NCBI GenBank assembly: GCA_947623925.1
Contig: CANQID010000004.1
Location: forward strand, 8,405 to 72,404
Source: an uncultured Bacilli bacterium
Lineage (GTDB): Bacteria > Bacillota_I > Bacilli_A > RF39 > UBA660
Direction: 5' to 3'
DNA length: 64,000 nt
This document shows, piece after piece, positions 3,442-61,436 of this stretch. Each line of letters opens with the position of its first letter. Position 1 is the stretch's first letter. The notes beneath the pieces are model-generated. The model saw only the letters and a program-made list of their open reading frames with translations, made no database searches and was not told where the DNA came from. The position numbers and the translations under genes are program-made.

Positions 3442-5223
3442 TTATTCACAAGTTATATCTTCTTTAAGGATTATATGTGATGGATTATTTGATGAATCTT
3501 GTGTAGTACTATTTTCTAAGACAACATTTGAAGTATAATAAACATTGCCTGTATTATTTATTGATATATCATTTTCTGTACCATTTAATTTTGCTTTACA
3601 TATATAAATATCTGATTTTGAAAAATTATTCACCGCTACAAAATTTTCACTAAAAACAAAAACTCCATTTATATATATATTTCCCGTTGAAGTACTATCA
3701 TTTGTGATTCCTCTACCATTTTTATTATACACACATATACCACTTGTATTTTCTTCTTCTCCACACTTATCTGCAATAGAACCTTTTATTTTAATATTTC
3801 CAGAGTTAAAATTTACTATATCCCTAGCAAGCCACCAATCTTTAGCAGTAATGCCGTCAGTATAAATATAAACCTTACCACTAGTATCTACTATATTTAT
3901 ATCTTTAGAACTATAATTAGCTATTACATTTCCACTAGATGTATATTTTCCACCATCAATGTTTATAGTACCATTTTCATTATTTCTAATTAATGGTTCA
4001 TTCGTAGTAGAAATTGTAGAATTTTTAATATTTATAACACCACTTCCTGCATTATATACAGTATTTATACCATTGCTACTAACTTCCACATTTGAAATGT
4101 TAAATATTCCTCCTGCGTAATTATTAAAAACTGCTCTATCTTCTACTGAATTAACAATTTTTATATTTTTTATATTAAATGTTCCATTGGACATATTTAC
4201 AAATTTCTCTGCAGTAGGGCTCTCAAAAGTTCCACCATTTACATTAAAAATAGCATCAGGTGAATAATTATAAACTACATAAGCTTTTTCCGAATAAAAT
4301 TTACCCCCATTTACTGTCGTTGTTCCGCTATTACCAATTACACCTCCACCACTTTGATCAGATGTTTTTTTTATGAAATTTCCACCATTAATTACTAACT
4401 CAGCGGTTTGTAAATCATTACCTAAAAGCCACCTTGTTGTTCCCATTGTACCCGTTCCTATTTTATCATTTATTGTTAATTTACCTTTATTGCTTAAAAG
4501 TGTTTCTACTCCAGATGCAGCAGTAACTGTCTTTCCATTTAAATCTATTGCTACATCTTTTCCTTCAGGAATAGCCAAAGTATTTTCTAAATTAATATCA
4601 CTTAATAATAATATGTTATTTTTTGTACTATCTATATTGTTTATTGTTTCTTCTAGATTATTACTAAAATTACATTCTGAATTTCCTAATATGTTTTCTA
4701 CTTTTATTTTTCCATCTTCTTCTTTTATTGTTACTCCATTATTACATACTACATTTGTTCCTTCTTCTTTTTCTATACTTGTATTTGTACTAGCTCCTAT
4801 ATATACTTTTTTTACTTGTTCATTATTTTTCTTTATTATTAATGTTTTATTATTTGTATCTTTACAATAATCATTTTCTGATATACTTGACACTCCATCT
4901 ATATAATCTATTGAATATTTATTTATACATAGATTCGCACTTTCTATATCACCTTTTTTTATTGTTATACTTCCATTACTTGGTCCTGTTCCTGTATATT
5001 CTGCTTTTATGTTATTATCTAGTACACTATATAATCCATCACTTACTTCATTCATTATTAAATAATTTGATACTGCTCTTACATATCCTTCTGCACTATT
5101 TAATGCTGTACTTTTTCTTGATGATTCTATTACATTTAATAGTATTGGTGTTGTTATTAACGCTATTACTGCAAGTATTACTATTACCGCTAATAATTCA
5201 ACTAATGTAAATCCTTTTCTCAT
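3442..5223 (-). CDS. large type IV pilin-like protein with C-terminal parallel beta-helix domain (paralog 1)
   Basis: 593 aa. The N-terminus MRKGFTLVELLAVIVILAV is a class III (prepilin) signal: cleavage after G, F at +1, E at +5, then a hydrophobic helix. The C-terminal two thirds have G/N/T-rich beta-helix-like repeats (NGG.., GGT..). The first ~220 aa are near-identical to ORF 59933..61330. Confidence 0.75.
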   Translation of the reverse strand: MRKGFTLVELLAVIVILAVIALITTPILLNVIESSRKSTALNSAEGYVRAVSNYLIMNEVSDGLYSVLDNNIKAEYTGTGPSNGSITIKKGDIESANLCINKYSIDYIDGVSSISENDYCKDTNNKTLIIKKNNEQVKKVYIGASTNTSIEKEEGTNVVCNNGVTIKEEDGKIKVENILGNSECNFSNNLEETINNIDSTKNNILLLSDINLENTLAIPEGKDVAIDLNGKTVTAASGVETLLSNKGKLTINDKIGTGTMGTTRWLLGNDLQTAELVINGGNFIKKTSDQSGGGVIGNSGTTTVNGGKFYSEKAYVVYNYSPDAIFNVNGGTFESPTAEKFVNMSNGTFNIKNIKIVNSVEDRAVFNNYAGGIFNISNVEVSSNGINTVYNAGSGVINIKNSTISTTNEPLIRNNENGTINIDGGKYTSSGNVIANYSSKDINIVDTSGKVYIYTDGITAKDWWLARDIVNFNSGNIKIKGSIADKCGEEENTSGICVYNKNGRGITNDSTSTGNIYINGVFVFSENFVAVNNFSKSDIYICKAKLNGTENDISINNTGNVYYTSNVVLENSTTQDSSNNPSHIILKEDITCE

Positions 5224-5300
5224 TTACTTCCTTCTTTCTACTTTATATATATATTATGCCCCCCCCCCCATGACTTTTGTCAAGTGGGGCGTGGGCATAA
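4560..5300. repeat. ~0.74-kb duplicated segment (pilin N-terminal cassette plus promoter), copy 1
   Basis: Near-identical at the DNA level to 60670-61410. Both copies are in direct orientation. Confidence 0.7.
5253..5283 (-). promoter_or_regulatory. putative sigma-A-type promoter of pilin-like gene 1 with an 11-nt homopolymeric G tract in the spacer
   Basis: On the minus strand there is a -35 TTGACA (5278-5283), a 19-nt spacer containing G11 (plus-strand C11 at 5259-5269), and a -10 CATAAT (5253-5258). An AAGGAAG RBS follows. Confidence 0.5.
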
Positions 5301-5395
5301 TATAAAAAAAGTACAATTGTGCTGGTAAACTTAAAGTAGACAACTAGAGAGGGTATGTAGACAATTGATTATTTTATTTATAAATATACATGAAA

Positions 5396-9233: not shown

Positions 9234-9510
9234 AATCATACATTAATTCAATTAATGATGCATCTTCTCCTAATTTATTAACATAATCTTTTCCAAGTTT
9301 AATTTTTAATTTTTCAAATTGTTTTATAAATTTCTCTGATGGTAATAAAAATAAATCCAATGATGTAATAATTAAGTCTTTTGCATAATATATACCATTT
9401 TCTTTTAAATATAAATATATCTTACTTATATTATCTATATCCATGCTATTAATTGTTTCTTCATCAAAATTTTCTTTTAATAATTTTATATCTAAATCAT
9501 CTAGTAACAT
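9232..9510 (-). CDS. small protein, translationally coupled to the upstream repeat protein
   Basis: 92 aa. The ATG at 9510 is preceded by GGAGG inside the 3' end of the 693-aa gene. It overlaps that gene by 14 bp. Confidence 0.5.
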   Translation of the reverse strand: MLLDDLDIKLLKENFDEETINSMDIDNISKIYLYLKENGIYYAKDLIITSLDLFLLPSEKFIKQFEKLKIKLGKDYVNKLGEDASLIELMYD

Positions 9511-11578
9511 TTTTATTTATCTCCTCCATATTATCTTTATAAGGATATTTCTTAATTAGTTCTTTTACATCAATTCCATATCTTGATTTTAATGCACCTG
9601 GTTGATACGAAAATACAGGATTTAATTTACCTTCTATTACTAAAGGTAGATTACTCTCTATTAAATAATTTATTAAAGCATAATTTTTACTTGGAGAAAA
9701 CAGCAAAAATGAGACATTTATATATTCATTTATTCCATATTCTTCAGCCATTTTAAATAATATAGGTATTTTTGAAATCATGACTTTAGCATTAGCAACA
9801 ATTGATGAAGTTAATAATTTTTCATATCTTTCATCTTTCCAATATGGCATATCAAGCAATTTAGAAATACTTTCTATATTGGCATGCGCTAATGTTTGTG
9901 ATGTGAATAACTCTGGATGCTCTTTATATTCTTGACTGTGAAGCATTTTTTGAATATCTTCTATATTCGCGTGTGCTAATGTTGTTGATGTAAATAACTC
10001 TGGGTGTTCATGATATTCTTTACTTTGAAGTATTTTTTGAATATCTTCTATATTCGCATTTGCTAATGTTTGTGATGTAAATAACTCTGGATGCTCCCTA
10101 TATTCTTGGCTGTGAAGCATTTTTTGAATGTCTTCTATATTTGTATACGATAATGTTGTTGATGTGAATAACTCTGGGTGTTCTTTATATTCTTGACTGT
10201 GAAGCATTTTTTGAATGTCTTCTATCTTCGCACGCGCTAATGTTTGTGATGTAAATAATTCTGGGTGTTCATGATATTCTTTACTTTGAAGTATTTTTTG
10301 AATATCTTCTATCTTCGCATGCGCTAATGTTTCTGATGTAAATAACTCTGGATGCTCTTTATATTCTTGACTGTGAAGCATTTTTTGAATATCTTCTATC
10401 TTTGTACGTGCTAATGTTGTTGATGTGAATAACTCTGGGTGCTCTTTATATTCTTGGCTGTGAAGCATTTTTTGAATGTCTTCTATCTTCGCATACGCTA
10501 ATGTTGTTGATGTGAATAACTCAGGATGGTCCTTATATTCTTGACTTTGAAGCATTTTTTGAATATCTTCTATATTCGCATGCGCTAATGTTTCTGATGT
10601 AAATAATTCTGGGTGCTCTTTATATTCTTGACTTTGAAGTATTTTTTGGATATCTTCTATCTTCGCATGTGCTAATGTTTGTGATGTAAATAATTCTGGA
10701 TGATCTTTATATTCTTGACTTTGAAGTATTTTTTGGATATCTTCTATCTTCGCATGTGCTAATGTTTGTGATGTGAATAACTCTGGGTGTTCATGATATT
10801 CTTTACTTTGAAGTATTTTCTGAATATCTTCTATCTTTGCATGTGCTAATGTTTGTGATGTGAATAACTCTGGATGTTCATGATATTCTTTACTTTGAAG
10901 TATTTTTTGAATATCTTCTATATTCGCATTTGCTAATGTTTGTGATGTAAATAGCTCTGGATACTCCCTATATTCTTGACTGTGAAGCATTTTTTGAATA
11001 TCTTCTATCTTCGCATGTGCTAATGTTGTTGATGTAAATAATTCCGGGTGTTCATAATATTCTTGACTGTGAAGCATCTTTTGGATGTTTTCAATATTAG
11101 TATATCCAAAGTTAATTGAATGGGAAATAGTCAAATTACCAATTTTATCAATATTTAAATTTAATTTTTCCACGTCTTTTATTATATGTTTAGGGCAAGA
11201 TAATACTGAAGTAATCTTATTTATTGCTTCAACTCCATAATTTTCAACTACATATTTGTATGTACCTATTAAACTTTCATGCTCGGTATTTAAAACATGA
11301 AGACATGTTTCAATATTAGTAAAAGATATATGTTCTTTTTTCAAAAATTCAATATTTAAACTAATATTTTCAACATTCATATATAAAATACTAGGACACT
11401 TTTCAATATTACTTGGGCTTATATTTAAATCATTTATTAAATAATTAAGTGTTTTATCAATTTCAAAAAATTCTCCTTTATCTAATATATTATTATTTTT
11501 ATTAACTAATTTATCAACAGATATATTATATTTCTCACATAATATTTTAAGATTATATTCACTTATCATGTAACCCAC
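9497..11578 (-). CDS. tandem-repeat protein with about 14 x 29-aa near-identical helical repeats; mTERF-like flanks
   Basis: 693 aa. Residues ~150-583 are 29-aa units of consensus PELFTS[QTE]TLA[HNYR]A[KN]IEDIQK[IM]L[QH]S[QK]EY[KHR]EH. The N- and C-terminal flanks look like degenerate ~30-aa helical repeats (..ISPSNIEKCPSIL.., ..LLFSPSKNYALINYL..). Confidence 0.8.
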   Translation of the reverse strand: MGYMISEYNLKILCEKYNISVDKLVNKNNNILDKGEFFEIDKTLNYLINDLNISPSNIEKCPSILYMNVENISLNIEFLKKEHISFTNIETCLHVLNTEHESLIGTYKYVVENYGVEAINKITSVLSCPKHIIKDVEKLNLNIDKIGNLTISHSINFGYTNIENIQKMLHSQEYYEHPELFTSTTLAHAKIEDIQKMLHSQEYREYPELFTSQTLANANIEDIQKILQSKEYHEHPELFTSQTLAHAKIEDIQKILQSKEYHEHPELFTSQTLAHAKIEDIQKILQSQEYKDHPELFTSQTLAHAKIEDIQKILQSQEYKEHPELFTSETLAHANIEDIQKMLQSQEYKDHPELFTSTTLAYAKIEDIQKMLHSQEYKEHPELFTSTTLARTKIEDIQKMLHSQEYKEHPELFTSETLAHAKIEDIQKILQSKEYHEHPELFTSQTLARAKIEDIQKMLHSQEYKEHPELFTSTTLSYTNIEDIQKMLHSQEYREHPELFTSQTLANANIEDIQKILQSKEYHEHPELFTSTTLAHANIEDIQKMLHSQEYKEHPELFTSQTLAHANIESISKLLDMPYWKDERYEKLLTSSIVANAKVMISKIPILFKMAEEYGINEYINVSFLLFSPSKNYALINYLIESNLPLVIEGKLNPVFSYQPGALKSRYGIDVKELIKKYPYKDNMEEINKNVTR
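9830..11131 (-). repeat. in-frame tandem 87-bp repeat array, about 14-15 units
   Basis: The 87-bp period is visible by eye on the plus strand (..cattttttgaatatcttctat..gctaatgtt..gatgt(g/a)aataactctgg..). It encodes the 29-aa repeats. Confidence 0.8.
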
Positions 11579-12360: not shown

Positions 12361-14062
12361 ATAGCGTTTCCAAAGTGGGGAGATTTATAAAACTAACCAT
12401 TATAAATAAATAAAAATGGTTAAAACCTTAAAAATGCTTTATAATTGAATTGAACATAAACAATAGAAAGCGTGGTTTTAACCTATGAAAATTATACCAT
12501 TAATAAATGAATTTACTAATACTTTTAATGAAATTTTTAAAGAAAATTTGAATCCTCTTAATTTAGAATCTAAAATTAGAACTGCTGGAGATACTTTTAC
12601 ATTATTACTATATGAAAAATTTTTAAATTATATTGATGATAAATTTAAAAATTCCAAAGAAAGAAAATCAATTTATAATATCAAAGAAACTAGAGAAAGA
12701 ACTTTAATTACTTCTGTAGGTTGTATTCATGTTAATTCTACTTCATATTATAACAAAACAACTAAAGAACGTTTTGTATTACTACGAGAAATACTTCATT
12801 TAAAACCCTATCAAAGATTAACTAATGAAGCAGAATATCAGTTAATTAAATATGCTATGGATGAAAATATGTCCCAATCTGCTCGTCTTGCTCTAAGAAA
12901 CACTCAAGTATCTCGTAGTACTGTTTCTAAAAAAATTGCTAAACTTGATGGCTCTATTATTGAAAATATTGCTAAATCTGTTAATCAACCTGATATTTTA
13001 TATATGGAGATGGATGAGATACATGCTAATCTTCAAAAAGGTGGTAATAAAATATGTCCATCTGCTATTGTTCATGAAGGTTATGAAGAAGATTTTGTTA
13101 AAAGAAAAAAACTAAAAAATATTCATTATTTTGCTTCAGCCAAATTGACTTACGAAGAATTATGGGAAGTAATGTTTGACTATGTTAATAAAAAATATAA
13201 TATTGATAAATTTAAAGTAATATTTGTTTCTGGTGATGGTGCTTCTGGTATTAAGAATTATACTAACTGTTTTCCTAATGCTAAATTTGTTCTTGATCCA
13301 TTTCATTATATTAGAAAACATTTAAGATATATTTTTAAAAGGAATACTGAATTAAAAAATAAAGCCGATGAATATATTAGAAATGATATGATAGATGACT
13401 TTAAAATATTGGTTGATAATCAAATAAAAGAATATCCTGATCAAGAAAAATATATGAAAGAACATAGAGATTACATAATAAATAATTTAGAAGGCATTAA
13501 AAATCAAAAGGATAAAGATTATAAAGTTCACTGTTCTATGGAAGGTCATGTTAATCAAGCCTTTGCTAGATATATTACTTCTTCCCCATACGGTTTTTCT
13601 GAAAGAGGATTAGAAAATAAACTTAAATTACTTGTTTATCATGCTAATAAAGTAAATTTAACTATCGAAGACTATTATAATTTAAAATATGGTACTAATT
13701 CATATGAAGATATAAATGTTAAAATTAAAAAATTGTGTAATATTAAATATGACCAGAAACTAACTTCTACCCATTCATTAGAATATAAAATAAACACAAG
13801 TTTACCAATATTTGATTCACCATCAGAAAATAACAAATTAAAAGAATTAACTTCTATTAGACAAGAAATTTATGTAATTTAAAAATAAGGTTAAGCACAA
13901 TTATGTCCTTAACCCTATACCATTATAAACATTGAATGTTGTCAAGGATCTAGATAAACTCGTTTCACTCGTCCTTGACAACGACACAAATATCTTTTAA
14001 AATGAGTTTAATTATAAAACTATTTTTTAGGAGAAAAATCTCCACACTTATTCTACACTAAC
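12361..14062 (+). mobile_element. ISLre2/UPF0236-type insertion sequence
   Basis: It carries one transposase ORF. The imperfect terminal inverted repeats have the core AAGTG(G/T)GGAGATTT (12373-12386 versus the reverse complement of 14039-14054). It is flanked by the 10-bp direct repeat ACCTTATTGG (12351-12360 and 14063-14072), a candidate target-site duplication. Confidence 0.55.
12485..13882 (+). CDS. ISLre2 (UPF0236) family transposase
   Basis: 465 aa. Family-level resemblance to clostridial UPF0236 transposases. It is the only ORF between the inverted repeats. Confidence 0.6.
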   Translation: MKIIPLINEFTNTFNEIFKENLNPLNLESKIRTAGDTFTLLLYEKFLNYIDDKFKNSKERKSIYNIKETRERTLITSVGCIHVNSTSYYNKTTKERFVLLREILHLKPYQRLTNEAEYQLIKYAMDENMSQSARLALRNTQVSRSTVSKKIAKLDGSIIENIAKSVNQPDILYMEMDEIHANLQKGGNKICPSAIVHEGYEEDFVKRKKLKNIHYFASAKLTYEELWEVMFDYVNKKYNIDKFKVIFVSGDGASGIKNYTNCFPNAKFVLDPFHYIRKHLRYIFKRNTELKNKADEYIRNDMIDDFKILVDNQIKEYPDQEKYMKEHRDYIINNLEGIKNQKDKDYKVHCSMEGHVNQAFARYITSSPYGFSERGLENKLKLLVYHANKVNLTIEDYYNLKYGTNSYEDINVKIKKLCNIKYDQKLTSTHSLEYKINTSLPIFDSPSENNKLKELTSIRQEIYVI

Positions 14063-15845
14063 ACCTTATTGGTGGTTTATCACTCTTACTGTGGCTTTTC
14101 ATGTTATTTCCAATATTAGTTATCACATTATCTATACTGACAGTTTGTAATAATGTGTAATTTTTATATATTCCATCATATATTCCATCTTCATTTTCGC
14201 CATCTATAATACCATTTATATTAACATTATATGTTTGCCCCATCTTTATATTTGAAGATGAATAAATAAATAAATTGTATTTTTTAGATGGTTTAAAAGT
14301 TATTACTTGGTTATTGTTGCTATCTGTTATATTAATTGGAGAATCACTAAAAGAATCTAATACTACTGCAATTGTATTTATTTTAGAATTTGAACTTGGT
14401 GTTTGCATCATTTCAGAAGAACCAGCACCTATTAATGTACCACCAGTTATTACAAATTCATTATCATAATCTAATACTCCATTTCCACTTGATTGAGGTC
14501 CATTTACTATAACCGTTCCACCTTTTATATAAATTGATCCATTAGAATCAAGACCATCACCTTCTGAATCTACATATATATATCCATCTTCTATTTCAAG
14601 TTTTCCAGAAGATGTGCTCATATGATTTTGACCTTTTCTACCGTTTATACTTGAAGAGTCATTACCACCTGCCACATTAATTCCATCATCAATAGAAATT
14701 ACATGAATTTTACCATTATAAATATTAATGTTTGAACTTTCCAAACCTTCATAACTTTTAGTTATATTAATATTTCCACCATATATACTTAAGTTAGTAT
14801 CAGAATGTATACCATCATCACCAGAAGTAATATCAAATTCACCATTTTTTATTTCAACTAAGTTATTGGAATGAATTGAATCATCAGAAGAATCTATATT
14901 TATGTTAGCATTTTCTATCAAAATATTAGAACCTGCTTTAATTCCCTTTGAACTAGTTGAATTAATGTTTGAATTTTCTTCGTTAAATCTTCCCCAATTA
15001 CCCCAATCACTTTTTGTACTTGAATTTATACTGCCTCCACCTGTTGTTATATTAAAATTCCCATTTTTTATCAAAACTAAATTTTCACTATCTATTCCAT
15101 CTTCTGTACTTACTATTTTAAATGTTCCATTTTCTATCGTTAAATTTCCTAAATTAGTATCTGTATTTGTAGTCTTAATTCCATCATTTTGTGATTTAAT
15201 ATCAAAATTTCCATTTTTAATATATATATAATCTTTTCCTCTTATACCATCACCAACAGAGTTTATTTTTAAATTACCATTTACTATTTTAAGTCCATCT
15301 TTTGAGGCTAATGCATCATTATAATATGATTCTATTTCTAAAGTACCATTACCATTAATTGTTAAATCTTCTTTACTAAATAGTGTTGCATTTGGTTCTT
15401 CTTCACTATCTAAAGTATAATTTGAAGTATCAGTAAGTTTATTTTTAGAATTATTAGCTAAAGTTATAACCGTTTTTTCTGAATTTTTTATAAATATTGC
15501 GCTATTATTTGAAGAAGAAACAGTAAGATTATCAAAAATTAACCTTACAGATTGTTTTGTATCAATTAAAATACTTCCATAAAAATTACCTGTTAAATAA
15601 TATGTACCACCTTCAGTAATATTAAATACTAAATTATTTAAATTCCCTTTAGTATAATTTGCAGTATTATCATTAAACTCTACTATATAAGAACTATTTT
15701 TATCAAATGTTTCTAATAAATCTTCTGTAGTTAAATCAATTTTTAAATTTTCACTATCTATTTGTTCTAATTCTTCATTCTTATTAGAACAACCTGTAAA
15801 TATTATAAGATTAATTAATAGAAAACTTACAATAAATTTTTTCAC
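14058..15845 (-). CDS. lipoprotein with Cthe_2159-type parallel beta-helix carbohydrate-binding domain
   Basis: Lipobox IIFTGC. Periodic ..NG.(F/L).I....DGI.. repeats are typical of the Cthe_2159 / carbohydrate-binding beta-helix family. The last 5 codons overlap the IS target duplication. Confidence 0.55.
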   Translation of the reverse strand: MKKFIVSFLLINLIIFTGCSNKNEELEQIDSENLKIDLTTEDLLETFDKNSSYIVEFNDNTANYTKGNLNNLVFNITEGGTYYLTGNFYGSILIDTKQSVRLIFDNLTVSSSNNSAIFIKNSEKTVITLANNSKNKLTDTSNYTLDSEEEPNATLFSKEDLTINGNGTLEIESYYNDALASKDGLKIVNGNLKINSVGDGIRGKDYIYIKNGNFDIKSQNDGIKTTNTDTNLGNLTIENGTFKIVSTEDGIDSENLVLIKNGNFNITTGGGSINSSTKSDWGNWGRFNEENSNINSTSSKGIKAGSNILIENANINIDSSDDSIHSNNLVEIKNGEFDITSGDDGIHSDTNLSIYGGNINITKSYEGLESSNINIYNGKIHVISIDDGINVAGGNDSSSINGRKGQNHMSTSSGKLEIEDGYIYVDSEGDGLDSNGSIYIKGGTVIVNGPQSSGNGVLDYDNEFVITGGTLIGAGSSEMMQTPSSNSKINTIAVVLDSFSDSPINITDSNNNQVITFKPSKKYNLFIYSSSNIKMGQTYNVNINGIIDGENEDGIYDGIYKNYTLLQTVSIDNVITNIGNNMKSHSKSDKPPIRC

Positions 15846-16504
15846 TATAACTCACCATTCTCTAAATCTCTTGATAACATTATTTTTAAATTACCATTTT
15901 TTATTCTCAATTCATCAATAAATTCTTTTTCATTAATATTTACTACTTCTACTTTATATGTAAGTTCATATAAACTACCCATGTTAGTTGTTTTTATTTT
16001 TTCTAAAGTATAACTTTTTGTATATTTTTTTAATGTATCATCAAATACATCTTCGTAGTCCAAATCTTCTGGTATTAAAATTTTTAAAATTCTATCACTC
16101 TTATTTGTATCCCCAAAATTAATTTTAAAAAGAATAAAAATAAGTAAACCAATAATTATAGTTGTAATAACTGCAAAAAAGATATAACCTGTTCCTAATA
16201 TTAATCCAATAGTCATTGCATAAAATATCATTACAATTTCTTTTGAATTACCAGGAATACTTCTAAATTTTACTAAACTAAATGCACCTACAATAGCAAT
16301 TGATGTCCCTAAATTACCATTTACAAGCATTATTATAACACATACTAATATTGGTAGTATAGTAAGTGTTATGGAAAAATTTTTATTATGTTTACTAGTA
16401 TTTATATATATTAAAGCTATTATAATACCTAGAACTATACTTGATATAAAACATATTAACATTCCTTCTAAATCTAATGTTCCATTTAAAACTGATTCAA
16501 ACAT
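15845..16504 (-). CDS. DUF4956-family membrane protein
   Basis: 219 aa. Four TM helices followed by an acidic C-terminal tail. Conserved partner of VTC-domain proteins. Confidence 0.55.
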   Translation of the reverse strand: MFESVLNGTLDLEGMLICFISSIVLGIIIALIYINTSKHNKNFSITLTILPILVCVIIMLVNGNLGTSIAIVGAFSLVKFRSIPGNSKEIVMIFYAMTIGLILGTGYIFFAVITTIIIGLLIFILFKINFGDTNKSDRILKILIPEDLDYEDVFDDTLKKYTKSYTLEKIKTTNMGSLYELTYKVEVVNINEKEFIDELRIKNGNLKIMLSRDLENGEL

Positions 16505-17196
16505 AATTTATTACCTCCTAATTTATTTTTATAAACTTCACCATATTTTGAAAATGAAGTTGGATATATCTTTAATTCATTTAAAATTTTCGTAAACCAA
16601 ACTGGAAGTGAATTTATTGTTTTTACTTCCATTATATATTTGTTAGTAATAATATTACCTCCATCTCCTTTTTCTAAATATAAATTATCAAATCTACTTC
16701 GTAAATTTGTATCAAAGGTTATTCTAAAATTATTATCTTTTTTATAAAAATATGCACATCTGTCATAAGCTATAAAGACTTGTGATTTTAAATTATTAAA
16801 TCTAAATGTATAATCTATTTCTTTCATAATTTGTGTTTTAAATGGTAATTTTTTCGTATAGTAATAAGAATAGAAATCCTTAAGTTTTATTTTTGTTCTT
16901 CTTTTATATACTGTTCCTTTATATTTCTTTTTAAGTTCTAAAAATACTACTGATTCTAAATTAGGTATATTATAACTTCTCAATCTTACTTTTTCTTTAT
17001 ATATTGGATGTTCTAATGATTTTCTTATTAAATCAAAATTATCAGTATCAAAATATATATTATAAATTGTATAAAACCCATGTTCATCTATAACCATTTT
17101 ATTTTTTATTTTTTCTATTAATAATTTATATTGACTTTCATCTATAATATATTTTTTTTCTAATCTTTCAAATATATTTATATCCATTTTTAACAC
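16486..17196 (-). CDS. VTC-domain (polyphosphate polymerase domain / CYTH-like) protein
   Basis: 236 aa. The N-terminus is ..FERLEKKYIIDESQYKLL.. and the overall family resemblance is to VTC domains. It overlaps the DUF4956 gene. Confidence 0.6.
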   Translation of the reverse strand: MLKMDINIFERLEKKYIIDESQYKLLIEKIKNKMVIDEHGFYTIYNIYFDTDNFDLIRKSLEHPIYKEKVRLRSYNIPNLESVVFLELKKKYKGTVYKRRTKIKLKDFYSYYYTKKLPFKTQIMKEIDYTFRFNNLKSQVFIAYDRCAYFYKKDNNFRITFDTNLRSRFDNLYLEKGDGGNIITNKYIMEVKTINSLPVWFTKILNELKIYPTSFSKYGEVYKNKLGGNKLCLNQF

Positions 17197-43725: not shown

Positions 43726-44952
43726 TTATTTTTTAAATATTTTAGTCTTTTTATATACCCATAACATAATTTTATACAAATTATATTTTGATTTTGATAT
43801 TATTAAATCAAATTCTCCAATTAATTCAACAACTCGTCCACCAAATCCACGTTTAAATTCATATATACCATACATATCATTGTTTTCTTTTTCAAAATTA
43901 CCAGTTATTCCATAAAAATTATATAAATAACATCCTCTTTTTATTGCATCTTTTATTGTAGACCATTTAATTAAATATTGTGCATCAAAATGCATAAATT
44001 TTTCGTAAGCCCCTCCAAATAAATTCAAGTATTCTTTTCCGCATACAATTGACATAGTTCCAGCAAGTGGTATTTTACTTCCATATTCTTTTTTATACTG
44101 TTCATATTCTTTTATCTTATTTTTATATTCTTCTATTTCTTTTAAATGATGTTCTTTTATATCTTGATAATTTTGTATTGTATTTATTTCATTATTAAAT
44201 TTTTCAATCCCTAAATCTATATCAAGATAACAAATATTAATAATTAAATCTTTTCCTATTTTATCATACATATTTTGATAATATGAATATGGTCTATCTA
44301 TAAATCCTCTTCTTGAACTAGTATGCTCCATAATATCTTTGTATTCATTCAGTTTATCTTTATTTATTTGTTCAACAATCAAACCTAATTTTTCTGTTTT
44401 TCTAATATATTTTCTATAGTGACGAGTAAATTGTGAAAAAATTTCATCTTCTGTTTTATCTTTTAAATCTAAAACAAACATCCATCTTGGTTGTAATTCT
44501 TTTGATATATCTTTACTAAATCCATAATGTTTAAATCCATAATCTTTTAATAATTGTACTAGATTTGAATTATCTGTACCTTCTTTCACGATATTTCCAT
44601 CAATATCTCTTTGTTTATACTCAACATATGGATCAATTTTTAACATAAATCCTTTCTGTTGTCTAACATACTCCTTTATAGCATCAAGAAAACTTTTAAC
44701 CAATGTTGTGTTTTCAAAATCTATTAAAAAACCTCTAGGTGCATAAAATAATTTTAATCCAAGTGGAAATTTTTTATATAATAAAAGTGTTGCTGCAACT
44801 ATTTCACCATTTTGTTTAGTTCCTACTAGTTTATAGTTCCAACCATTTGTTTGCTTTAACTTACCCCAATATTCCTTTTGATGAAAAGTAATATATTTAT
44901 TATTGCTTGCAAATTTATCATATTCCTTGCTATCTATTTCTTCTATATGCAT
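43726..44952 (-). CDS. FemAB-family peptidoglycan branch aminoacyltransferase (paralog 1)
   Basis: 408 aa. FemAB-like N- and C-lobes with a central coiled coil (..EIEEYKNKIKEYEQYKKEYG..). Confidence 0.65.
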   Translation of the reverse strand: MHIEEIDSKEYDKFASNNKYITFHQKEYWGKLKQTNGWNYKLVGTKQNGEIVAATLLLYKKFPLGLKLFYAPRGFLIDFENTTLVKSFLDAIKEYVRQQKGFMLKIDPYVEYKQRDIDGNIVKEGTDNSNLVQLLKDYGFKHYGFSKDISKELQPRWMFVLDLKDKTEDEIFSQFTRHYRKYIRKTEKLGLIVEQINKDKLNEYKDIMEHTSSRRGFIDRPYSYYQNMYDKIGKDLIINICYLDIDLGIEKFNNEINTIQNYQDIKEHHLKEIEEYKNKIKEYEQYKKEYGSKIPLAGTMSIVCGKEYLNLFGGAYEKFMHFDAQYLIKWSTIKDAIKRGCYLYNFYGITGNFEKENNDMYGIYEFKRGFGGRVVELIGEFDLIISKSKYNLYKIMLWVYKKTKIFKK

Positions 44953-57402: not shown

Positions 57403-58599
57403 ATGGTTTTTGCGCAATTAAATGAAGAAGAATACAAATCTTTTCTTGATGACCATAAACTTAAAACATTTTTACACACACCGAATATTTCAAAAATAAG
57501 AAAAAGAGATGGTTGGGATAGTGTTTATCTTGGTATTAAAGAAAACAATAAAGTAATAGCTGCAACAATGTTGCTTTCTAGAAAAGAATTTCTAGGTAAA
57601 AAAGAATTTTTTGCTATAAGAGGTTTTTTAATTGACTATGAAAATGAAAAATTATTAGATTATTTTACTAAAAAAGTAAGTGAATATGTAAAAAATAAAG
57701 ATGGCTTTATTCTAAGGATGGATCCATATATTATTAAACAGCAAAGAGACATAGATGGAAATATTGTAAAAAATGGATACAATAACTTTAAAATAATAGA
57801 ACACCTTAAAAAATTAGGTTTCAAAGAAAGAAATCCAGAACAAGCAAAATGGATGTTTGTTCTAGATATAAAAGATAAAACAATGGAAGAACTTTTAAAA
57901 GAAATGAAACCTAACACTAGAAATTGTATAAACAAAACCTTTAAAGAAGGATTAATTGTAAGAGAATTAAAATATGAAGAATTAGATAAATTTTTAAAAA
58001 TTACAGATGATACAAGCGAAAGAAAAAATTTTGAAAATAAATCTATAAATTATTATAATGATATGTATAAATTATTTGATAAAGATATCAAATTTATAGT
58101 TGCTGAAATAAATACAAAAGAATATTTGGAAAATTGTAAAAAGAAACTTGAAAACGAAAATAAAATATTAGATTCATTAAATAAATCTAGTGAAGGAAAA
58201 ATCAAGGAACAAAAAATAAAAATTAAAGGTATTGAAGAAAGATTAGAAGAGGCAAAACAATTAACAAAAATAGATGAATTTATCATATTATCTGCTGGTA
58301 TGTTTATAACATATGGAGACGAAATAATCTATTTATCAAGTGGAAATTACAAAGAATATATGCATTTTTATGCACAATATAGAATCCAATATGAAATGAT
58401 AAAATATGGTGTGGAAAATGGTTATAAATTATATAATTTCTATGGAATAAGTGGAAATTTTGATAAAAATGATTCTAGATATGGAGTTTATAAATTTAAA
58501 AAAGGATTTAATGGACATGTTGTAGAATTAATTGGTGAATACGAATTAGTAATAAATAAATTCAATTACTATATATATAAAATAATTAATAAAATTTAA
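57403..58599 (+). CDS. FemAB-family aminoacyltransferase (paralog 2)
   Basis: 398 aa with FemAB architecture and a central coiled coil. Confidence 0.65.
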   Translation: MVFAQLNEEEYKSFLDDHKLKTFLHTPNISKIRKRDGWDSVYLGIKENNKVIAATMLLSRKEFLGKKEFFAIRGFLIDYENEKLLDYFTKKVSEYVKNKDGFILRMDPYIIKQQRDIDGNIVKNGYNNFKIIEHLKKLGFKERNPEQAKWMFVLDIKDKTMEELLKEMKPNTRNCINKTFKEGLIVRELKYEELDKFLKITDDTSERKNFENKSINYYNDMYKLFDKDIKFIVAEINTKEYLENCKKKLENENKILDSLNKSSEGKIKEQKIKIKGIEERLEEAKQLTKIDEFIILSAGMFITYGDEIIYLSSGNYKEYMHFYAQYRIQYEMIKYGVENGYKLYNFYGISGNFDKNDSRYGVYKFKKGFNGHVVELIGEYELVINKFNYYIYKIINKI

Positions 58600-58633: not shown

Positions 58634-59896
58634 ATGTATACTTTCATTGAAAATATAAAAAAAGACGAATATGAAAACTTTGTATTAAATCATAAAATTA
58701 AATCTCATTTTATGCAATCTTATTATTTTGGGGAAATTTCTAAAAGTAAAGGTTTTATACCACATTATGTTGGAATGAAAAAAGATGATAAATTAGTTGC
58801 ATGTGCTTTATTACTTCAAAAAAAATTATTCAAAAAAACAAGTTATTTTTATTCACCAAGAGGTTTTGTTTTAGATTTTAATGATGAGGAATTACTAACT
58901 GAATTTACAAAATATGTAAAAAACTATACTAAAAAATTTAACTCTTTTTTTACTGCTATTGACCCTGATATAAAACTACAAAATTTAGATATAGATGGTA
59001 ATATTATTGAAGGTGAAAATAATTTCAAATTAGTTGAAACTTTAAAGAAAATTGGTTATAAACATTTAGGATTTAACAAAAACTTTGAAAACCGTGAACC
59101 TAGATATACTTTTAGACTTAGTTTAGAGCCAGATATAGATAAAATACATAAAAACATGCATGCTACAACTAGAAAAATTTTAAATAAAGGTAATCAATAT
59201 AATTTAAATGCTTATATAGGCGATGAAAAAGATTTAAAAGATTTTTATTTTACTATGAAAGAAACTGCTATTAGAGAAGAAATAACTCCTTTCCCTTTTG
59301 AATATTATAAAAAATTTTATAATGTTTTCAATAAAAATAATATGAGTGATTTATATGTTGTTAAAGTTAATATAGATAATTTAATAAATATTTATAATAA
59401 AAAAATTGATGATATAAATAATGATATTAAAAATGCTCACAATTTAATAAATAAAAATAAATCTAAAAATTTATTAAATGATTATAATAATCAATTAGAA
59501 AAATTAAAAAAAGAGTTAGATATTATCAAAAAAATAGAGGAAAAAGAACTTGTTTTATCTTCTATAATAACAGTTAAATATGGTGATAAAGTATGGACTG
59601 TTCACGGAGGAAATTCAAATAAATTAAGAGAATTAAATGCTAACTATCTATTATATGATTTAATAATATGTGACGCAAAAAAAGAAGGATTTAAATTAAT
59701 AGATTTTTTTGGAACAACAGGTAATGATAGTGATAATAATAAAATTCATGGAATTCACTTGTTTAAAAAAAGATTAGGTGGAGAGTATACGGAATTTATC
59801 GGTGAATTTCATTTAATTACTAATAAGTTTATGTATTTTATATATACAAAAATTGTTCCTTTATATAGAAAATTAATGAAAAAAATTAAAAATTAA
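58634..59896 (+). CDS. FemAB-family aminoacyltransferase (paralog 3)
   Basis: 420 aa with FemAB architecture. Confidence 0.65.
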   Translation: MYTFIENIKKDEYENFVLNHKIKSHFMQSYYFGEISKSKGFIPHYVGMKKDDKLVACALLLQKKLFKKTSYFYSPRGFVLDFNDEELLTEFTKYVKNYTKKFNSFFTAIDPDIKLQNLDIDGNIIEGENNFKLVETLKKIGYKHLGFNKNFENREPRYTFRLSLEPDIDKIHKNMHATTRKILNKGNQYNLNAYIGDEKDLKDFYFTMKETAIREEITPFPFEYYKKFYNVFNKNNMSDLYVVKVNIDNLINIYNKKIDDINNDIKNAHNLINKNKSKNLLNDYNNQLEKLKKELDIIKKIEEKELVLSSIITVKYGDKVWTVHGGNSNKLRELNANYLLYDLIICDAKKEGFKLIDFFGTTGNDSDNNKIHGIHLFKKRLGGEYTEFIGEFHLITNKFMYFIYTKIVPLYRKLMKKIKN

Positions 59897-59908
59897 TTCA
59901 ATATAAAA

Positions 59909-59930
59909 TCATGCTTTTAAGCATGATTTA
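59909..59930. terminator. bidirectional rho-independent terminator
   Basis: Hairpin AATCATGCTT-TT-AAGCATGATT lies between the convergent femAB paralog 3 and pilin-like gene 2. T-rich tracts sit on both sides. Confidence 0.6.
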
Positions 59931-59932
59931 TT

Positions 59933-61330
59933 TTATTCACATGTAAGATTGTCATTTAAAATTATATGTGTTGGATTATTTACATCAGATTTTGTACCAT
60001 TTTTTAATATATTTTCTGAATTATAGTATATATATCCCTCACCTGCTGTTATACCAAAGTCTTTTTCATACCCAGTAATACTTCCATCACATATATTAAA
60101 AGATCCTATTCCACGCATTTCAATTCCAATATATGCAGAGCTTAATATAGTGTTGTCTTTTATTTTTATTATAGATATCCCATCATTCTTTATTCCATAA
60201 CCATATGCATCTATTGTTGTATTATAAATTTGTAATGTACCAGCACTATTATCCCAAACACAATTATCAGATATACAGTTAAAATTAGAATTTTTAATTG
60301 TTGCTTGGCCATTACCATAAATTCCAAATGCTTTTCCAGATGAAGTAACACTAACTTTTTCCAAAGTAGCAATTGAATTTCCTGACACCATTATAGGATA
60401 ACAATCTTTAACGTCGTTTCTACACTTAAGAACGGAATCATTTATAATTATATTTGAATTATCTTCAGTTATTATTCCATTATAAGTTCCACCATTTAAA
60501 ATTACATTTGCATTTTTTTGTAAATGAAAGCTTGCCCCTCGTGAAGATACTTCATCATGATTATCAAATGTAACATTAGAATTCTTTCCATTTACTTTTA
60601 AATTTCCAATTACTTCCAAAAAATACCCACTTAAATTTTTCTGATTTAAATCTATTACTACATCTTTTCCTTCTTTTATAGTCAAAGTATTTTCTAACTC
60701 TATATCACTTAATAATAATATATTATTTTTTGTATTATCTATATTATTTATTGTATCTTCCAAATTACTATTAAAATTACATTCTGAATTTCCTAATATG
60801 TTTTCTATTTTTATTTTTCCATCTTCTTCTTTTATTGTTACTCCATTATTACATACTATATTTGTTCCTTCTTCTTTTTCTATACTTGTATTTGTACTAT
60901 TTCCTATGTATACTTTCTTTACTTGTTCATTATTTTTCTTTATTATTAATGTTTTATTATTTGTATCTTTACAATAATCATTTTCTGATATACTTGACAC
61001 TCCATCTATATAATCTATTGAATATTTATTTATACATAGATTCGCACTTTCTATATCACCTTTTTTTATTGTTATACTTCCATTACTTGGTCCTGTTCCT
61101 GTATATTCTGCTTTTATGTTATTATCTAGTACACTATATAATCCATCACTTAATTCATTCATTATTAAATAGTTTGATACTGCTCTTACATATCCTTCTG
61201 CACTATTTAATGCTGTACTTTTTATTGATGATTCTATTACATTTAATAATATTGGTGTTGTTATTAACGCTAGTACTGCAAGTATTACTATTACCGCTAA
61301 TAATTCAACTAATGTAAATCCTTTTCTCAT
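59933..61330 (-). CDS. large type IV pilin-like protein with C-terminal parallel beta-helix domain (paralog 2)
   Basis: 465 aa. It has the same class III signal (MRKGFTLVELLAVIVILAV) and an N-terminal ~220 aa near-identical to ORF 3442..5223. The C-terminal domain is divergent, apart from the last ~15 aa (..NPTHIILNDNLTCE). Confidence 0.75.
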   Translation of the reverse strand: MRKGFTLVELLAVIVILAVLALITTPILLNVIESSIKSTALNSAEGYVRAVSNYLIMNELSDGLYSVLDNNIKAEYTGTGPSNGSITIKKGDIESANLCINKYSIDYIDGVSSISENDYCKDTNNKTLIIKKNNEQVKKVYIGNSTNTSIEKEEGTNIVCNNGVTIKEEDGKIKIENILGNSECNFNSNLEDTINNIDNTKNNILLLSDIELENTLTIKEGKDVVIDLNQKNLSGYFLEVIGNLKVNGKNSNVTFDNHDEVSSRGASFHLQKNANVILNGGTYNGIITEDNSNIIINDSVLKCRNDVKDCYPIMVSGNSIATLEKVSVTSSGKAFGIYGNGQATIKNSNFNCISDNCVWDNSAGTLQIYNTTIDAYGYGIKNDGISIIKIKDNTILSSAYIGIEMRGIGSFNICDGSITGYEKDFGITAGEGYIYYNSENILKNGTKSDVNNPTHIILNDNLTCE

Positions 61331-61410
61331 TTACTTCCTTCTTTCTACCTTACTTATATAATATCACACTTGACTTAACTTTTGTCAAGTAGGCGTTGAA
61401 ATAATATAAA
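60670..61410. repeat. ~0.74-kb duplicated segment (pilin N-terminal cassette plus promoter), copy 2
   Basis: Near-identical at the DNA level to 4560-5300. Confidence 0.7.
61351..61388 (-). promoter_or_regulatory. putative promoter of pilin-like gene 2 (no homopolymer tract)
   Basis: The -35 TTGACA at 61383-61388 (complement) is followed by TATTAT/GATATT -10 candidates and an AAGGAAG RBS. It is homologous to the paralog-1 promoter except that the G-tract region is replaced. Confidence 0.4.
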
Positions 61411-61416
61411 AATATA

Positions 61417-61436
61417 TAAAAAACAGCTTTAAGCTG
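61417..61436 (-). terminator. rho-independent terminator of rpmE, overlapping its stop codon
   Basis: On the minus strand the sequence is AACAGCTTAAAGCTGTT followed by TTTTTATATATTTTT. Confidence 0.6.

Follow-up and report, generated by a model that had tools for sequence, protein, structure and literature searches.

What do two large open reading frames (ORFs) encode that begin almost identically and end quite differently at distant sites of one genome, and how would their products come to vary? The question is raised by a 64-kb stretch of DNA (hereafter the window) from the uncultured gut Firmicute metagenome-assembled genome (MAG) GCA_947629815.1, which has a GC content of 23.5% and in which the 79,955-bp contig carrying the two ORFs also includes sporulation and peptidoglycan genes. 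ORF A (3442..5223, minus strand) and ORF B (59933..61330, minus strand) are predicted to be modular prepilins of 593 and 465 residues, respectively. The reading that we favor, and to which we give moderate confidence, is that they are minor or tip pilins presenting β-helix adhesins, with stems kept uniform by gene conversion, tips exchanged at a fixed junction, and, for at least ORF A, expression subject to slipped-strand phase variation. The sequence shows the domain architecture, the paralog family, the homogenized cassette, a tip replacement in a relative, and the position and non-random recurrence of a poly-G tract; processing, assembly into filaments, the role as an adhesin, and switching itself are deduced. 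The functional side of this reading draws on predicted folds and on analogy, and the locus itself is represented by one MAG assembly.

Both ORFs start with MRKGFTLVELLAVIVILAV and display the prepilin class III signal that a first-pass annotation of the window had noticed: a charged leader running up to a glycine (MRKG) is followed by FTLVELLAVIVILAV, a hydrophobic stretch with a glutamate at position +5. The Pfam N_methyl motif (PF07963) scores 26 bits in ORF A and 27.3 bits in ORF B (cut-off 21.2), and TIGR02532 scores 29.3 and 30.5 bits, respectively (cut-off 16.3). Pfam and NCBIfam scans of the two proteins report nothing above cut-off besides this N-terminal motif. Across 56 homologs, no variation is seen at K3, F5, T6, L7, and E9, of which F5 and E9 are F1 and E5 when counted within FTLVE. 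The AlphaFold2 model of ORF A, obtained with a 56-sequence alignment (predicted local distance difference test, pLDDT, 87.4; predicted template modeling score, pTM, 0.79), comprises a helix (residues 7-57), an antiparallel sheet (residues 63-114), a β neck (residues 127-187), and short strands from residue ~200 to the end. In the AlphaFold2 models, the extended α1 helix packs onto the antiparallel sheet of the pilin module (strands 63-66, 83-89, 92-100, 103-108, and 111-114), which is the arrangement expected of a type IV pilin, and the structure prediction proposed as a check by the first-pass annotation thus returned both elements it was to look for, an N-terminal pilin α-helix and a β-helix. 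A phmmer search against PDB sequences reports as its only matches the α1 helices of the pilins MshA, PilE1, and PilE.

The β-helix that follows the pilin module and the neck is predicted to cover ~390 residues in ORF A (residues ~200-590) and ~265 residues in ORF B. It is closed by a C-terminal cap, NPSHIILKEDITCE in ORF A, for which the conserved motif of the family is NP[ST]HI.L..D..CE. According to the models, a protein of this family is made up of the class III signal (MRKG followed by FTLVE), the α1 helix with its small β-sheet, a disulfide-containing neck, a right-handed parallel β-helix, and the cap; ORF B possesses the same stem and neck as ORF A, and a shorter, unrelated β-helix tip. 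With a pilin module and an extra structured module, both proteins belong to the modular pilins as defined by Raynaud et al. 2021 (PMC8179133). Pilins of this size with a β-helix had been called unusual, which proved too strong: modular pilins are widespread, their 264 architectures being represented by >1,200 proteins (PMC8179133), and the structure of the Thermus thermophilus pilin ComZ, which carries a β-solenoid module, has been solved (PMC6561018), so that the bare architecture is not new. The neck-plus-helix module is scarce: of 1.84 billion cluster representatives, 264 are hit at E ≤ 1e-3, and the count falls to 15 when E ≤ 1e-30 is required.

The two ORFs point in the same direction, and 56,107 bp separate them, in agreement with the ~56 kb first reported. 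Their first 228 codons are common to both, with 28 differences over 684 nt (95.9% identity) and several 60-nt windows at 100% identity, which bears out the near-identity in DNA claimed for ~220 N-terminal residues. Together with ~88 nt of upstream sequence, these codons form a conserved 5′ cassette (4540..5311 for ORF A and 60647..61418 for ORF B, both on the minus strand) that ends at a DLNGK motif, in the first rung of the β-helix. Past DLNGK, the DNA of ORF A and ORF B can no longer be aligned, and the C-terminal parts of the proteins return a weak alignment (32% identity over 131 residues). Taken with the N_methyl and TIGR02532 matches and the AlphaFold2 model, this divergence of the tips agrees with the earlier picture of a constant pilin stem bearing differing β-helix tips. 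Two details of that picture need correction. The last ~15 residues had been described as shared, and 11 of the final 17 are indeed identical, but in DNA the 3′ similarity amounts to a single block of ~23 nt, which provides no 3′ homology arm. Likewise, the ~80 bp upstream of the ORFs, promoter included, had been taken as near-identical, but identity is ~75% from -60 to -1 and ~53% farther out. The -35 box and the ribosome-binding site (RBS) are common to both ORFs, the promoter spacers differ, and ORF A alone of the pair contains a run of eleven G residues (G11).

Although two copies had been reported, the family is larger, with at least four genes in the MAG: ORF A, ORF B, P0002 (510 residues), located on the same contig beyond the window, and P0006 (521 residues), located on a different contig and flanked by rnhB and hrcA. 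P0002, P0005, and P0006 are assigned to one assembly with the window. Near-identical stems occur in further samples, in P0003, which adjoins ligA, and in P0004, which adjoins ireB/ruvX. Every family copy examined is monocistronic and stands alone among housekeeping genes. ORF A is flanked by a pseudouridine synthase gene and by ABC-type ATPase genes, and ORF B by rpmE and by femAB-family genes, with a terminator-like hairpin (59906..59929, no strand assigned) between the ORF B stop codon and the convergent femAB-family gene. In another sample, an ISL3-family transposase gene (L002, 8485-9756) is located directly upstream of the P0003 pilin gene and may have helped to disperse the family.

How, then, did the stems become so similar and the tips so different? 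Among ORF A, ORF B, P0003, and P0004, the 5′ cassette is 96-100% identical in DNA, and identity falls abruptly at its end; the P0006 cassette is ~85% identical. Over the 228 codons of the cassette, ORF A and ORF B exhibit 9 synonymous and 14 non-synonymous codon differences. Since synonymous differences are few and the rest of the genes is unalignable, selection on the protein alone is insufficient to explain the cassette, and recent duplication or gene conversion is indicated. In another sample, ORF A has an ortholog, P0241, with substitutions at residues 20, 87, and 147, all of them in the cassette, and with zero differences over the ~360-residue tip. Each of the three differences is the allele of a paralog, which points to patchy, ongoing conversion between paralogs rather than to one old duplication.

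The tips compare differently. No similarity could be detected between the ORF A tip (residues 231-455) and those of ORF B, P0003, P0004, and P0006. The same tip is 52-56% identical to 502-residue proteins of another species, the stems of which are only 39-41% identical to that of ORF A. A 643-residue protein of that same species contains a part with ~40% identity to the ORF B tip, and an 887-residue protein from elsewhere matches the ORF A C-terminal part at 56% identity. Because tip identity exceeds stem identity across species, the tips would be modules older than the stems; on these comparisons, they look like old modules common to several species, carried on stems that appear homogenized within the genome.

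A related, widely sampled gut species provides a direct case of such tip replacement. Its locus order is mraY, a 643-residue pilin gene, a second pilin gene, and murL, and the second pilin is, by strain, either a 572/573-residue or a 502-residue allele. When two strains are aligned, DNA identity is ~99% over the upstream gene, the promoter, and the first ~190 codons, falls over the next ~40 codons, is lost just after DLNGK up to the stop codon, and is again near-complete beyond. The junction is therefore the one that separates ORF A from ORF B. The strain comparison that had been advised at the outset thus yields signs of recombination at two levels, the conversion pattern of the P0241 cassette and the fixed-junction tip swap of the related species. 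These signs support part of the initial proposal that the repeats could serve as substrates for gene conversion or cassette exchange; the rest of it is at odds with the lack of a 3′ arm and with the copies read, which are complete genes, each with a promoter.

In the related gut species (L084-L087), the large pilin genes are located inside a cell-wall synthesis cluster (Mur-ligase gene, mraY, pilin, pilin, murL, murD); the gene of a 115-residue prepilin has a Clp-type AAA+ ATPase gene on one side and the Mur-ligase gene on the other. At these loci, the second pilin gene begins with ATGAAAAAAAAAGGG, which places an A9 run at the start codon. A tandem version of the multi-tip arrangement is found in a Hadza gut "Bacilli" MAG (L035, 1288-12000, CAKPHH010000006.1), with five consecutive head-to-tail prepilin genes of ~674-683 residues and very similar N-termini.

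Does the promoter of ORF A offer a further means of variation? On the minus strand, its -35 hexamer TTGACA (5278..5283) is followed by a 19-nt spacer that consists of AAAGTCAT and G11 (5259..5269, C11 on the plus strand), and then by a putative -10 hexamer CATAAT (5253..5258). The P0006 promoter also possesses CATAAT, after a 17-nt spacer (TTGACA-17 nt-CATAAT), and has GGTGGAGGT in place of the ORF A G11. The ORF B promoter (61360..61388, minus strand) comprises TTGACA, a 17-nt spacer, and GATATT with an upstream TG (extended -10); it matches the consensus at 10 of 12 positions and contains no homopolymer. A promoter consensus scan recovers the ORF B promoter and reports no -10 partner at 16-18 nt for the ORF A TTGACA. 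No homopolymer of G or C besides G11 reaches 6 nt in the window, and this tract had escaped the first-pass annotation. Situated in the core promoter between TTGACA and CATAAT, it is of a length at which a tract can slip (~8 nt or more). A poly-G sequencing artefact is unlikely, since the tract lies in the interior of an 80-kb contig and replaces the G-rich GGTGGAGGT of the paralogous promoter, and since similar tracts stand at homologous promoter positions in independent assemblies. A metagenome scan with the ORF A promoter and a variable gap returned two matches, both attributable to chance.

The ORF A -35 box is surrounded by an imperfect palindrome, TATATTATGCCCACGCCCC ... GGGGGGGGGGGCATAATATA (5250..5304, no strand assigned), with arms of ~19 nt and a gap of ~16 nt. 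As single-stranded DNA, it is predicted to fold at -20.5 kcal/mol (z -6.8), the G run pairing with the C-rich left arm. At the matching site, ORF B contains the inverted repeat ACTTGAC-N9-GTCAAGT, and a dimeric regulator may bind the palindrome of ORF A and the inverted repeat of ORF B. A switch by DNA inversion was considered and rejected: the palindrome at the -35 box is the only inverted repeat, and no long-range inverted repeat surrounds ORF A or ORF B.

Poly-G runs at other pilin loci were sought in ~747 kb of low-GC loci, the window included; these loci drew on the matches listed by a scan with generic N-terminal pilin patterns. Six G/C runs of 8 or more were found, the same six being returned at a threshold of 7. 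All six have G on the coding strand and all six lie at most 200 nt upstream of pilin-like genes, a zone that represents 1.9% of the sequence (binomial P 4e-11; 2e-9 without the window; ~1e-7 without the window and with two paralogous promoters counted once). The genes behind the tracts encode modular pilins with other tip types: the L008 protein (338 residues) has a central N/Q/S/L-rich segment, the L045 protein (367 residues) has a WWLR-containing C-terminal domain, and the L010 protein comprises 514 residues. Because the poly-G-preceded pilins of other MAGs bear different tips, the tract appears to accompany modular pilins generally and not the β-helix tip. In L045, the promoter reads TTGACA-TGTA-G11-CGTGG-TAGAAT; in L017, where the contig begins at the tract, it reads G9-TGTATGC-TAAAAT; in L008 and L016, the tract plausibly lies within TTGCTA ... 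TATTTT. The L008 lineage, in which >400 proteins are conserved over their N-terminal two-thirds and vary at the C-terminus, possesses a ~140-nt promoter cassette that is conserved across three loci and four assemblies. Its length variation falls nearly all at the G tract and an adjoining T tract, between almost invariant flanks, and the distance from CAAAC to AAATACC is 15, 16, 17, 17, and 19 nt in five copies. Two metagenomic contigs start inside a pilin promoter cassette or at a G9 tract (L003 at position 1 and L017 at positions 1-9), which suggests that assemblers break at repeated or length-variable elements. In the literature searched, type IV pilin genes of Firmicutes or gut commensals are not described as having poly-G tracts in their promoters.

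If we assume that these proteins function as pilins, a prepilin peptidase encoded elsewhere would cleave the leader, and the mature pilins would be incorporated into a type IV filament in small numbers, probably at its tip, the β-helix being displayed on the filament as an adhesin. Each family copy would be expressed independently. In ORF A, G11 would set the spacing of the -35 and -10 boxes at 19 nt, as compared with 17 nt in P0006 and ORF B, and gain or loss of G residues by slipped-strand mispairing at replication would turn the ORF A tip randomly on or off. The population would then contain a mixed repertoire of pilus tips, heritable yet reversible. Conversion would keep the ~0.78-kb 5′ cassette, which includes the promoter core, the RBS, the stem, the neck, and the first rung, almost identical among copies.

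Several observations weigh against this reading. The pairing of the C-rich left arm with the G run is not accounted for by simple slippage. Among the copies read in this species group, the promoters of ORF B, P0006, P0003, and, as far as it is present, P0004 contain no homopolymer, so that phase variation would concern one copy and not the whole repertoire, and the tract length of ORF A is read from one assembly only. At the other loci, the promoter of L010 is ambiguous as to whether the G tract falls between a -35 and a -10 box, and the G run of the L008 lineage is itself only 9 or 10 nt long, much of the length change residing in adjacent bases. As for the machinery, no assembly ATPase, platform protein, or prepilin peptidase was found in the window, where a T2SSE Walker A motif is lacking, or in any of the low-GC loci examined (±10 kb of pilin genes), where A24-peptidase motifs are lacking as well.

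Another explanation is that of ordinary paralogs without switching, issued from recent duplication and occasional domain shuffling, in which G11 would be static, for example as part of a regulator-binding palindrome, and the identity of the cassettes would reflect recent duplication or concerted evolution without any adaptive role. Such paralogs would have normal promoters, as ORF B, P0006, and P0003 do, and a single tract length; moreover, the strong palindrome of ORF A and the inverted repeat of ORF B, which suggests an operator, would find a natural place. We regard this explanation as unlikely, if still deserving attention, because G11 is far from chance expectation at 23.5% GC, because G9-G11 tracts also precede the genes of unrelated modular pilins in a number of MAGs, because the length variation of the conserved promoter cassette is concentrated at the tract, and because the strain differences of the ORF A ortholog are paralog alleles, which implies ongoing conversion. 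Conversion alone might evoke a system of the Neisseria pilE/pilS type, in which one expressed locus is rewritten from silent, promoterless, partial cassettes, and the paralogs do share their 5′ sequence, with a G-rich element upstream of one of them. Such a system is highly improbable here: the copies read (ORF A, ORF B, P0006, P0003, and P0004 in part) are full-length with promoter, RBS, and start codon, which leaves no place for silent cassettes among them. Furthermore, it is the 5′ stem that is conserved and the entire tip that varies, no 3′ homology arm is present, and G11 lies within the promoter spacer rather than in a separate, multi-run G-quadruplex (G4) motif.

The absence of assembly genes leads to another explanation, according to which the proteins, whether or not a prepilin peptidase processes them, are not filament subunits, the signal and the hydrophobic helix serving only for secretion or anchoring of a surface β-helix that could be a polysaccharide lyase or depolymerase instead of an adhesin. 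This would fit with orphan genes that have no assembly genes within reach, and with C-terminal modules so bulky that they can hardly be accommodated in the body of a filament. A complete pilin module with F1 and E5 invariant in 56 homologs goes beyond the needs of a membrane anchor, however, and makes this explanation quite improbable, as do the Streptococcus sanguinis PilB and PilC proteins and T. thermophilus ComZ, all reported to be pilus-associated (PMC8179133, PMC6561018), and the 115-residue candidate major pilin encoded near family genes in the related species. With regard to the machinery, the first-pass statement that pilB, pilC, pilD, and pilM are missing from the window holds: besides the negative search for the T2SSE motif, no further prepilin motif was found in the window, and a Pfam scan of ~40 of its 59 ORFs returned housekeeping genes and no type IV pilus component. 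Pilus machinery was not found either in 18 kb of a second contig of the MAG. Since assembly genes are missing near the pilin genes of all these low-GC loci, orphan pilin genes seem typical of the lineages concerned, and the strict conservation of the cleavage motif and of E5, together with the 115-residue candidate major subunit, indirectly favors the existence of a machinery.

Several other features of the window may be described. A 693-residue ORF (9497-11578, minus strand) contains ~14-16 head-to-tail units of 87 nt (29 residues) at 9747-11177, with 68-87% identity to a reference copy; its Pfam matches, e.g. to TP6A_N, are weak, partial, and repeated. A second β-helix surface protein, unrelated to the pilins, is encoded within 14058-17196 (minus strand): this 595-residue predicted lipoprotein possesses a Cthe_2159 carbohydrate-binding domain of the β-helix type (E 1.6e-87), and its gene adjoins DUF4956 and VTC-domain genes. 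A 465-residue ORF (12485-13882, plus strand) of UPF0236, a transposase-like family, lies on the strand opposite to most of its neighbors. Up to three FemAB-family paralogs are present, at 43726-44952 (minus strand), 57403-58599 (plus strand), and 58634-59896 (plus strand), two of them directly beside ORF B; two are confirmed by Pfam and the third is assigned from its sequence only.

Modular pilins have recently come to explain many functions of simple type IV filaments. The favored reading, if true, would join three layers of variation in one lineage, namely tips that can be interchanged on a constant stem, stems held by gene conversion in a form that one machinery can assemble, and a homopolymer switch in a promoter. 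It would extend phase variation by simple sequence repeats, seen mainly in Gram-negative mucosal pathogens and mycoplasmas, to the pilins of gut Firmicutes. It would also yield a simple rule for searching the metagenomes of AT-rich organisms, in which prepilin genes preceded by at least 8 consecutive G residues would mark further loci. More tentatively, and as a possibility that we would not yet call probable, uncultured low-GC gut Firmicutes may possess a contingency-locus system of type IV pili, with dispersed modular pilins, converted stems and promoters, tips of β-helix and other types exchanged between loci, strains, and species, and poly-G switches, which would provide a general means by which gut commensals vary the specificity of their adhesion.

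Compared with known systems, the closest resemblance in architecture is to S. sanguinis PilB and PilC, which carry a vWA and a lectin module, respectively (PMC8179133), and to ComZ. In all of them, as here, a small pilin module with a class III signal carries a bulky module for display, and ComZ indicates that a β-solenoid can ride on a pilin. In contrast, the present family possesses a long C-terminal right-handed β-helix devoid of any Pfam signature, is encoded by dispersed orphan genes outside a pil or com operon, and counts at least four copies per genome, with homogenized stems, interchangeable tips, and one promoter homopolymer. β-helix adhesins are also found among autotransporter passengers (Vag8, pertactin, UpaB, and Hap) and in the Gram-positive PfbA, at sequence identities of only 11-13%, but these are exported or anchored by a type V barrel or a sortase, a role that a pilin stem would play here. 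The pilus described for TANB77 is not the same system, as its pilins are small (143-236 residues) and encoded in an operon (PMC11680825).

In terms of regulation, such a contingency-locus system would be the type IV pilus counterpart, in a Firmicute, of the Bordetella fim and the Mycoplasma Vlp systems. The fim subunit genes of Bordetella are located away from the assembly operon. In Bordetella pertussis, fim2, fim3, and fimX contain poly-C promoter tracts, the length of which alters transcription, and the subunits phase-vary independently (PMC1891110, citing Willems et al. 1990). Several paralogous pilus-subunit genes and a G/C homopolymer in a promoter are thus common to both. The fim genes, however, encode major subunits of chaperone-usher pili in a Gram-negative pathogen, with the tract between the BvgA site and the -10 box, whereas type IV modular pilins of a gut Firmicute, known from sequence alone, are concerned here, with the tract between the -35 and -10 boxes. 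The vlp genes of Mycoplasma hyorhinis, a multigene family for surface proteins, reportedly combine highly conserved 5′ regions, with promoter and signal peptide, and divergent external domains (Yogev et al. 1991; Citti and Wise 1995), and are said to have a homopolymer in each -35/-10 spacer that leads to combinatorial on/off expression. They differ in that they encode lipoproteins, have poly-A tracts, and are clustered, the present genes encoding prepilins, being dispersed, and having poly-G in one of the copies read. In the combination seen in this genome, dispersed orphan modular type IV pilins are associated with concerted evolution of stems and promoters, with tips common to several species, and with a poly-G promoter tract.

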